Position numbers and translations under genes: made by a program. Below the pieces are notes generated by a model. That model was given only the letters and a program-made list of their open reading frames with translations. It searched no databases and was not told the DNA's origin. From the NCBI RefSeq assembly GCF_003991155.1, contig NZ_CP031293.1: a stretch of 64,000 bases of DNA. One strand, written 5' to 3'. Of this stretch, positions 61,538 through 64,000 are shown one piece after another (positions within the stretch are counted from its first letter, which is position 1; each line of letters opens with the position of its first letter). The DNA is from Escherichia coli. GTDB lineage: Bacteria; Pseudomonadota; Gammaproteobacteria; Enterobacterales; Enterobacteriaceae.

Positions 61538-62787
<1,250 letters not shown>

Positions 62788-63090
62788 TAGCCATGGTGCC
62801 GGTGTGGAATCCCCGTGGAACGCGGTGGCTGGTGCGAACTGGTCGTTCTGACCATCAACGATTAAACTGCGCTTCGGCGCAGTTTTCGTTTACAGGGTGT
62901 TAAAAGGGAAAATTCTGCGGCAAAAAAAGCCCGCCAGTTACGGCGGGAAACCTCATCCTATGGGAGAACAATGAATAATGAAATTGCGGGGTTATCATCT
63001 CCCAGTATACCAATACTAACAATAAGGTTATTTACTCAGCCAGGTATAAACATTTTGTTCTGTGTGGGGGGAACGGCATTAAGGTGTAAA

Positions 63091-63102
63091 GGGGGGGGGG
63101 GG
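63091..63102. repeat. Homopolymeric G12 tract
   Basis: Twelve consecutive G in the noncoding spacer between the IS-disrupted ycgI 3' end and the minE terminator. Confidence 0.8.
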
Positions 63103-63159
63103 AAGCAATGAGTAGCATCAGCAAGAATACTCGCCGCTCTTATCAAACGTGGATGAGGG

Positions 63160-63195
63160 GGATGAAAAACTCAAGGCAGAGATGACTCTGCCTTG
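63160..63195 (-). terminator. Rho-independent terminator of the minCDE operon
   Basis: Hairpin caaggcagag-atga-ctctgccttg about 30 nt downstream of the minE stop, followed on the minus strand by a U-rich run. Confidence 0.6.
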
Positions 63196-63221
63196 AAGAT
63201 AAATGCGCTTTTACAGCGGGC

Positions 63222-63488
63222 TTATTTCAGCTCTTCTGCTTCCGGCAAGGTCACGTTGAGCTCAAGAATAGAAATATCGCCATCTTTTTGCTCAAGCTGT
63301 ACGGTTACCATCTCAGGATCAATTTGTACGTATTTACAAATGACCTCAAGAATATCTTTACGCAACTGCGGCAGATAATGCGGTTCTGCATCGCTGCGAC
63401 GGCGTTCAGCAACAATAATCTGCAGCCGTTCTTTTGCAATGTTGGCCGTGTTTTTCTTCCGCGAGAGAAAGAAATCGAGTAATGCCAT
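63222..63488 (-). CDS. minE: Cell-division topological specificity factor MinE
   Basis: 88-aa [34 protein letters not shown]... Confidence 0.96.
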
Positions 63489-63491
63489 AAC

Positions 63492-64000
63492 TTATCCTCC
63501 GAACAAGCGTTTGAGGAAGCCTTTCTTCTCTTCTTCAATGAAGCGGAAAGGACGTTCTTCTCCCAACAGACGTTCTACGGTATCTGCGTAGGCTTTACCC
63601 GCATCGGCGTTAATGTCGAGAATGACCGGTTCACCCTGGTTAGAGGCGCGCAATACTGATTGATCCTCAGGGATCACACCGACGAGTTTGATGCGCAGGA
63701 TCTCCAGCACATCTTCCATGCTCAGCATGTCACCTCTGCTTACGCGGCCTGGGTTATAGCGCGTTAACAGCAGGTGCTCTTTAATAGGCTCTTCGCCATT
63801 TTCTGCGCGGCGTGATTTCGACGCCAGAATGCCTAAAATACGGTCAGAGTCGCGTACTGAGGAGACTTCCGGGTTGGTGGTAATAATGGCTTCGTCTGCA
63901 AAATAGAGTGCCATTAGCGCACCGGTCTCAATCCCTGCCGGGGAGTCGCAAACAATAAATTCAAAGTCCATCGCTTTCAGATCATCAAGAACTTTGGCGA
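63492..64000 (-). CDS. minD: Septum site-determining ATPase MinD (3' portion; 5' end beyond window)
   Basis: Frame open to the window edge; C-terminus ...EEKKGFLKRLFGG (membrane-targeting amphipathic helix) immediately upstream of minE. Confidence 0.95.
   Translation of the reverse strand, partial: AKVLDDLKAMDFEFIVCDSPAGIETGALMALYFADEAIITTNPEVSSVRDSDRILGILASKSRRAENGEEPIKEHLLLTRYNPGRVSRGDMLSMEDVLEILRIKLVGVIPEDQSVLRASNQGEPVILDINADAGKAYADTVERLLGEERPFRFIEEEKKGFLKRLFGG

Follow-up and report, generated by a model that had tools for sequence, protein, structure and literature searches.

The element described here lies close to the end of a 64,000-nt stretch of Escherichia coli DNA (contig NZ_CP031293.1, hereafter the window), in the non-coding spacer downstream of minE. 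It comprises a 57-nt block, conserved between E. coli and Escherichia albertii, that runs into an intrinsic terminator. At this end of the window, in an E. coli locus, ymgD-ymgG-ymgI-ymgJ and an autotransporter remnant, on the plus strand, converge with minE-minD-minC on the minus strand. The minE coding sequence (63222–63488, minus strand; 88 aa) is the last gene of minCDE according to the list of open reading frames (ORFs) and to the annotation of E. coli FDAARGOS_1268 (100% identical) and K-12. In K-12, where the remnant is ycgI, no feature is annotated between ycgI (end 1223907) and minE (start 1224279). Likewise, ten independent assemblies contain no gene call within the spacer, and the 98 nt around the distal terminator occur once per genome and are unannotated throughout RefSeq.

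An earlier note on this DNA had described two terminator-like hairpins on the minus strand after minE, and both are found within 1–2 nt of where it had placed them. This arrangement is contained in a 481-nt region found in 5,307 of 5,426 complete E. coli genomes (~98%). The interval from hairpin to hairpin (62948–63169) measures 222 nt, close to the 230 nt of the note, and is non-coding as proposed there: the longest ORFs touching it have 46 aa (plus strand) and 40 aa (minus strand), and none reaches 60 aa. Within 62700–63500 a consensus scan detects three terminator-like sites (vs. 1.0 ± 1.0 in shuffled sequences), the two strong ones being hairpins 1 and 2. Both display the attributes of an intrinsic terminator, i.e., a GC stem-loop of at least 5 bp with a short loop and a U-tract directly 3′.

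Hairpin 1 (63165–63197, minus strand) has a stem of 12 pairs (63170–63181 with 63186–63197), a loop of 4 and the sequence UUUUU at 63165–63169. Its fold energy is −19.4 kcal/mol (RNAfold), and the region 63160–63225 folds with a z-score of −6.2 against shuffles. The GGCAGA...TCTGCC core is common to the minE terminators of Citrobacter, Salmonella and E. albertii; the E. albertii terminator is very strong and bidirectional-looking, with a 13-bp stem between A6 and U-runs. In some E. coli strains the minE terminator is weakened (CTTGCG stem base; U4). Term-seq of K-12 places a strong minus-strand RNA 3′ end at 1224224/5 in two listings, in which the neighbouring entries are 1218676 (or 1218619) and 1226099 (Adams et al., 2021; PMC7815308, supplementary file 1). 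As this position is the U-tract of hairpin 1, the hairpin is a real terminator, and the minCDE mRNA ends there.

Hairpin 2 (62922–62947, minus strand) is built from cccgcc (62930–62935), the loop agttac and ggcggg (62942–62947), which form 6–7 bp (6 GC) with a fold energy of −11.8 kcal/mol (RNAfold). The A7 of the plus strand, located at 62922–62928, is the U-run that the note had read from it, and gives the minus-strand RNA a C-U7 tail. Canonical terminator geometry is present on the minus strand only. E. albertii also has hairpin 2 (−9.5 kcal/mol, U8). Just beyond it, and absent from the earlier note, the plus strand carries a terminator of its own (62864–62894), a perfect 9-bp inverted repeat including CTGCGC-TTCG-GCGCAG (62864–62885) and followed by TTTTCGTTT, which ends the convergent autotransporter remnant and is kept in E. 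albertii. The convergent gene therefore does not depend on hairpin 2, which is an extra minus-strand terminator without an annotated gene of its own. The plus-strand terminator itself varies: in one metagenome haplotype of E. coli type (L107) its hairpin is swapped for an unrelated one in the same place (AAAGCCCACAGATGTGGGCTTTTT), and another lineage has two stem-weakening changes (CAGCGCCGAAACGCAG).

Conservation across the spacer was followed in MinE-anchored loci from 80 species. Another 80 loci, all with the same context, came from metagenomes scanned with a 25-mer; 48 distinct haplotypes were obtained. The ultraconserved block (62931–62987, minus strand) consists of GCAAUUUCAUUAUUCAUUGUUCUCCCAUAGGAUGAGGUUU and most of hairpin 2, i.e., the 40 nt upstream of the hairpin and most of the hairpin itself. 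It is 100% identical in E. albertii (L009), and 61 nt are identical in a second E. albertii-type sequence (L166). By contrast, the spacer flanks of the block are only 28–60% identical to E. albertii and barely alignable. At four-fold degenerate sites of minD and minE, 33 of 120 positions differ between the window and E. albertii, which amounts to 72.5% identity; at this neutral level the chance of a run of 57 identical nucleotides is ~0.725^57, or ~1e-8. Homology to E. albertii begins ~50 nt upstream of the block and stops at the U-tract, an extent that would accommodate a promoter together with a small gene. Within E. coli the 40 nt are conserved at least as strongly as hairpin 2, the canonical sequence being present in 14 of 18 loci of an unbiased set, with one single-nucleotide polymorphism in three loci and a 7-nt duplication in one. 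Judged from these alignments, the 40 nt preceding hairpin 2 appear to be under the strongest constraint, which would not be expected of a mere terminator; a plain back-up terminator should show the opposite pattern. Rare changes do occur inside the block: one assembly among L171–L180 has a 7-nt tandem duplication of CATTATT (region homologous to 62965–62980), and another E. coli assembly has UUCCCCC in place of UUCUCCC.

Immediately upstream of the block lies a candidate sigma70-like promoter (62994–63022, minus strand), with a −35 element TTGTTA (63022–63017), a spacer of 17 nt and a −10 element GATGAT (62999–62994). For this promoter a +1 at 62987 is predicted, which coincides exactly with the block's first base. 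With an approximate sigma70 position weight matrix the site scores 7.7 bits, which makes it the top minus-strand site of the spacer in the window and in two other haplotypes, and the second in K-12. The hexamers are nearly fixed, the sole −10 variant being AATGAT, as in E. albertii, whereas the promoter spacer has five highly polymorphic positions and keeps its 17-nt length in 81 of 82 sequences. This pattern of variation fits a promoter. An A/T-rich dodecamer, TGAGTAAATAAC (63027–63038, minus strand), covers about −51 to −40 of the candidate start; it shows no variation among 46 E. coli haplotypes and is identical at 11 of 12 positions in E. albertii, with the variant TGAGCAAATAAC in L175. 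The dodecamer is possibly an UP-like or regulator site. E. albertii also has stronger promoter-like sites 130–166 nt upstream, in AT-rich DNA. Partly overlapping the dodecamer, ~50–65 nt upstream of the candidate start (63036–63052, minus strand), is a direct-repeat-like sequence, TGTTTA-N5-GGTTGA in K-12 and TGTTTA-N5-GGCTGA in the window, which we take to resemble a PhoP box and which is poorly kept in E. albertii. The PhoP box direct repeat is (T/G)GTTTA-N5-(T/G)GTTTA.

The RNA predicted from this start to hairpin 2 runs from 62987 to ~62922 (K-12 1224043 to 1223978, minus strand) and is ~66 nt long. Its 5′ part, which includes GCAAUUUC...GAGGUUU, is predicted to fold mostly into loop or weak stem; the 5′ 40 nt of the block are U/A-rich and contain CAUUGUUCUCCC, an anti-Shine-Dalgarno (anti-SD) and anti-AUG motif. 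The 3′ module, AGGUUU-hairpin-CUUUUUUU, combines a U-rich stretch, a terminator and a U tail, as is usual in Hfq-type small RNAs (sRNAs), and the 40 nt 5′ of hairpin 2 would provide, in the predicted structure, the conserved accessible seed that such RNAs possess. When 301 nt of the region are compared with Rfam, the best models are rseX (19.6 bits; gathering threshold 50) and MicA (16.2 bits; gathering threshold 41), both with E > 1, and none reaches its threshold. These chance-level alignments run end-to-end and on the same strand as the candidate RNA; they are a resemblance of architecture, not membership. Duplexes with the translation-initiation regions of the 64-kb window give no signal above shuffled controls.

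On these grounds the spacer is tentatively interpreted as harbouring a gene for a small non-coding RNA that annotation lacks and that is confined to E. coli and E. albertii; hairpin 2 would be its end, and the minE terminator would not belong to it. The chance that this is correct is substantial, though below even. The earlier note had proposed a tandem terminator, a small independent transcript or an sRNA derived from the 3′ untranslated region (UTR). The two terminators of the first proposal look genuine, while the comparative data favour the second: the constraint on the 40 nt plus hairpin and the predicted +1 at the start of the block speak for an independent unit over a plain tandem terminator. 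The third is less likely because the mapped terminator of minE itself lies 180 nt before the block.

As a mechanism, hairpins 1 and 2 would act as separate intrinsic terminators of minus-strand transcripts, and hairpin 2 would close a compact conserved unit of ~120 bp (63038–62922) on its 3′ side. A weak sigma70-type promoter, TTGTTA-N17-GATGAT, would initiate an RNA of ~66 nt at ~62987. The first 40 nt of this RNA are predicted to be weakly structured, and CAUUGUUCUCCC within them is the complement of a Shine-Dalgarno sequence with its AUG; a GC hairpin and U7 come next and would complete the 3′ architecture typical of Hfq-type base-pairing sRNAs. If expressed, in conditions not yet sampled, the RNA may pair through its 5′ region with the translation-initiation regions of target mRNAs. 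The more specific proposal that this is an undescribed, Escherichia-specific regulatory RNA of ~66 nt, with a weak or conditional promoter and CAUUGUUCUCCC as anti-SD seed, missed by two decades of screens because it is silent in standard conditions, is plausible and somewhat less certain.

Several observations weigh against a small RNA gene at this site. The promoter is weak: the minus-strand search suggested in the earlier note yields no promoter in the spacer when 9 of 12 sigma70 consensus matches are demanded, and the site at 63022–62994, which emerged with the weight matrix, has 8 of 12. Sites of at least 7.7 bits occur at 0.0016 per nt in the window, so ~0.4 are expected by chance in 230 nt and the promoter score alone means little; the E. 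albertii counterpart, TGGTGA-17-AATGAT, is weaker still. A G-to-A change in the stem of hairpin 2, which lowers its fold energy from −11.8 to −4.6 kcal/mol in a context of U8–U9, is found in 18 of 82 sampled E. coli sequences. The fold of the block is not significant (z-score −1.1), and the invariant block offers no variation from which covariation could be read. The covariance search advised in the note did not place the RNA in a family, as no Rfam 15 model attains its gathering threshold in the spacer when 2 kb are searched. E. coli K-12 has been intensively mined for sRNAs, which lowers the prior for a new sRNA gene. No entry for the spacer appears in the Hfq-CLASH and small-RNA deep-sequencing supplements that were searched, and a literature search by gene pair, names, sequence and coordinates retrieves no mention of the element. 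Term-seq, also recommended in the note, supports hairpin 1 only: neither of the two K-12 listings has a 3′ end at hairpin 2 (1223978–84), in tables that contain only the strongest peaks from three laboratory conditions (PMC7815308). The list of transcription start sites of Romero et al. (2014) has none in the spacer; its reverse-strand site 1224160 is given in U00096.2 coordinates and, with the offset of 777, falls inside minD. Hairpin 2 is therefore without expression support, and the evidence on this point is thin and limited to standard conditions.

In the main competing explanation, hairpin 2 is a fail-safe (tandem) terminator or insulator that catches read-through from minE and keeps antisense transcription out of the convergent gene, with no functional RNA involved. 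Located 222 nt downstream, it shares its strand with minE and has a strong U7; the U-tract of the minE terminator is no longer than U5, and some strains have weakened forms of that terminator; the convergent gene's own terminator is located just beyond it, and the accessible K-12 data show no independent transcript. This explanation does not account for a conservation that is higher in the 40 nt than in the hairpin, with 100% identity of these 40 nt in E. albertii. Moreover, E. albertii keeps the block behind a very strong minE terminator, which argues that the block is independent of minE read-through; a crippled stem is tolerated in 22% of the sampled E. coli sequences; and the lack of a listed Term-seq 3′ end at hairpin 2 implies that little read-through arrives there under the conditions tested. 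Tandem terminators at convergent gene pairs also differ in that their hairpins are adjacent and not 222 nt apart, whereas here selection acts upstream of a hairpin 2 that has no mapped K-12 3′ end. A purely fail-safe role is accordingly rated as rather unlikely, although it deserves serious consideration.

Read-through could also be productive. Some minCDE transcripts might pass hairpin 1, stop at hairpin 2 and be trimmed by RNase E to a stable 3′ fragment containing the block. Strand and order are those of 3′UTR-derived sRNAs, and the block opens with AA|UUU, in agreement with the RN|WUU preference of RNase E. In addition, an 8-bp perfect inverted repeat, CCTCATCC / GGATGAGG (in the RNA CCUCAUCC/GGAUGAGG), pairs 62951–62958 with 63151–63158 and would join the block to the region just after the minE U-tract. 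Against this, the minE terminator is strong and is the major mapped 3′ end, no 3′ end is listed at hairpin 2, and neither the upstream arm of the repeat (63151–63158) nor the whole 5′ half of the spacer is conserved in E. albertii. CpxQ, SroC and MicL resemble the element in lying downstream of a coding operon, on the same strand, and in ending at an intrinsic terminator; they share that terminator with the parent mRNA, whereas here the mapped terminator of minE lies in between. A processed minCDE fragment is consequently quite unlikely.

The block might instead serve the plus strand, where it contains a strong Shine-Dalgarno sequence and an ATG at good spacing (GGGAGAACAATG, ATG at 62971) in front of an ORF of 36–46 aa (MNNEIAG...). 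Most E. coli sequences keep this frame open over 36 aa and E. albertii over 39 aa, with identical residues at the first 7 positions. The candidate RNA would then be a cis-antisense RNA over a translation-initiation region, a geometry known from SymR/SymE and from type I toxin-antitoxin loci, in which a short RNA is perfectly antisense to the Shine-Dalgarno sequence and start of the opposite small ORF. The ORF here nevertheless appears unconstrained. There are 27 peptide variants in 82 sequences, and past residue 8 nearly every nucleotide difference changes an amino acid; in one lineage (9–10 of 82 sequences) a 1-nt deletion leaves an ORF of only 15 aa; and the C-terminus changes with the length of the homopolymer tract of the spacer. 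The peptide, as read from its sequence, lacks the hydrophobicity of type I toxins. A search for a promoter on the plus strand found none, and the DNA further upstream shows no conservation. Five peptides (four E. coli forms and one E. albertii form) are all absent from a collection of 15 billion proteins. The minus-strand ORFs cross the terminator and are frameshifted by the same 1-nt deletion. A protein-coding spacer on either strand is thus ruled out by the frameshifts, the mostly non-synonymous variation and the absence from the protein collection, and a plus-strand role of the block with an antisense partner is highly improbable.

Two side observations concern this strand. Two SD-ATG-like 16-mers, GGGAGAACAATGAATA (62962–62977) and GGGGAAGCAATGAGTA (63099–63114), are 75% identical and 137 nt apart, and may be the trace of an old duplication. 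Changes in the length of the G tract shift the frame, so that the 46-aa and 25-aa ORFs (62971–63111 and 63108–63185, plus strand) are fused to 69 aa in two metagenome haplotypes (MNNEIAG...GGEAMSSISKNTRR...); these ORFs are otherwise unconstrained.

A further explanation takes the block as a DNA-level element, e.g., a protein-binding or recombination site at an old junction, or as chance hitch-hiking, with hairpin 2 as the relic terminator of a lost gene. The genomic setting makes such a scenario conceivable. In the 80-species set, spacer homologues beside minE are found only in E. albertii (3′ half) and in the cryptic Escherichia MOD1-EC7003, in which the 5′ half is present before the contig ends. 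In other Enterobacteriaceae (L013, L017, L029, L035; ~1770–3020 of those loci) minE is followed by a bidirectional-looking terminator consisting of an A-run, GGCAGA..TCTGCC and a T-run, and in Salmonella enterica subsp. arizonae (L035) the convergent RNase D gene, rnd, follows this terminator (Pfam DNA_pol_A_exo1 and HRDC). Compared with these loci, the E. coli spacer between minE and the autotransporter remnant is located at a synteny breakpoint. Furthermore, three Escherichia species, represented by E. whittamii, E. sp. E1V33 and a GTDB representative labelled E. coli SCPM-O-B-8794 (L010, L012, L014), lack the entire stretch between the minE stop and ymgG, including the GGCAGA terminator, the autotransporter with the spacer before it, and ymgJ/ymgI. 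Both variants of the explanation face difficulties: a relic would be expected to decay at the neutral rate (27.5% at four-fold sites) and not to be 100% identical, and no palindrome or repeat is recognisable within the block, which is single-copy. A DNA site or relic is therefore considered very unlikely. In the three species that lost the segment, an unrelated spacer of ~470 nt leads into ymgG (~1768–2240 of those loci), and a different long-loop hairpin, ATCTGACAG...CTGTCAGAT, follows minE. A repeat or mobile-element origin of the E. coli spacer was rejected because there is one copy per genome and no match to the region in phages. Thirteen "plasmid" matches to the region are non-mobilizable records of up to 4.9 Mb, which are interpreted as mislabelled chromosomal pieces.

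The rest of the spacer (63039–63164, minus strand) is non-coding and evolves fast. In bins of 25 nt, 8–48% of the columns are variable, with frequent indels, among 46 E. coli haplotypes, and the value rises to 52% in the bin 63030–63006. The 125 nt from the minE terminator to the conserved unit are unconstrained spacer. They include the G12 tract that the earlier note had pointed out, which is present in the window (63091–63102; C12 on the minus strand) but is no general feature of the locus: most E. coli, including K-12, have an interrupted tract, TATTTCCACCTCCCCC (39 sequences) or TATTTCCCCCTCCCCC (21 sequences) on the minus strand, and pure C6, C7, C8, C9 or C12 is confined to minor lineages. 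The variation in run length (6, 7, 8, 9, 12) among close haplotypes is reminiscent of the homopolymer contingency tracts of phase-variable loci. The tract here differs from these in being mostly interrupted in E. coli and in lying outside any conserved ORF or promoter spacer; it lies in a non-conserved part of the spacer, 69 nt ahead of the candidate −35, and no promoter-like site spans it. Tract-length polymorphism is present, yet not at a position where length would switch expression. The G12 tract is thus a slippage-prone, lineage-specific homopolymer of variable length outside the conserved unit and without a link to a conserved ORF or promoter.

On the other side of the locus, the autotransporter remnant is split in the window by an insertion sequence (IS) of the IS3 family at ~61.54–62.79 kb. 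This element (61538–62790, minus strand) carries orfA (62404–62751), with an HTH_Tnp_1 domain, and a frameshifted orfB. The Rfam model isrC ("Hfq binding RNA") matches 62597–62719, in the 5′ part of orfA, with 145 bits and E = 1e-36. Since the match lies inside the transposase gene, isrC detects IS transposase sequence here and no independent sRNA.

The closest parallels to the proposed small RNA gene are Hfq-type intergenic sRNAs such as MicA, RybB and RseX. The likeness consists in the predicted length of ~66 nt, an unpaired, U/A-rich and conserved 5′ region, a U-rich stretch beside a GC terminator with a tail of at least 7 U, and conservation that begins at the predicted +1. In contrast to these RNAs, the element is without Rfam membership, detected transcript, Hfq binding or target; its promoter is weak and generic, of no identifiable stress-sigma type, and it occurs in E. 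coli and E. albertii only.

No bacterial genome is annotated more thoroughly than that of E. coli K-12, and minCDE is an operon known from textbooks. Should hairpin 2 be only a fail-safe terminator, the finding would be an ordinary one, save for the unexplained conservation of the flanking 40 nt. Nevertheless, 57 nt that have remained unchanged since the split of E. coli and E. albertii, that adjoin an orphan terminator and for which more than 5,000 genomes carry no annotation, point to a functional element missed by annotation. If it is indeed an sRNA gene, it would add a regulator specific to this lineage and offer an inexpensive test of whether silent sRNA genes can be found from conservation combined with orphan terminators.

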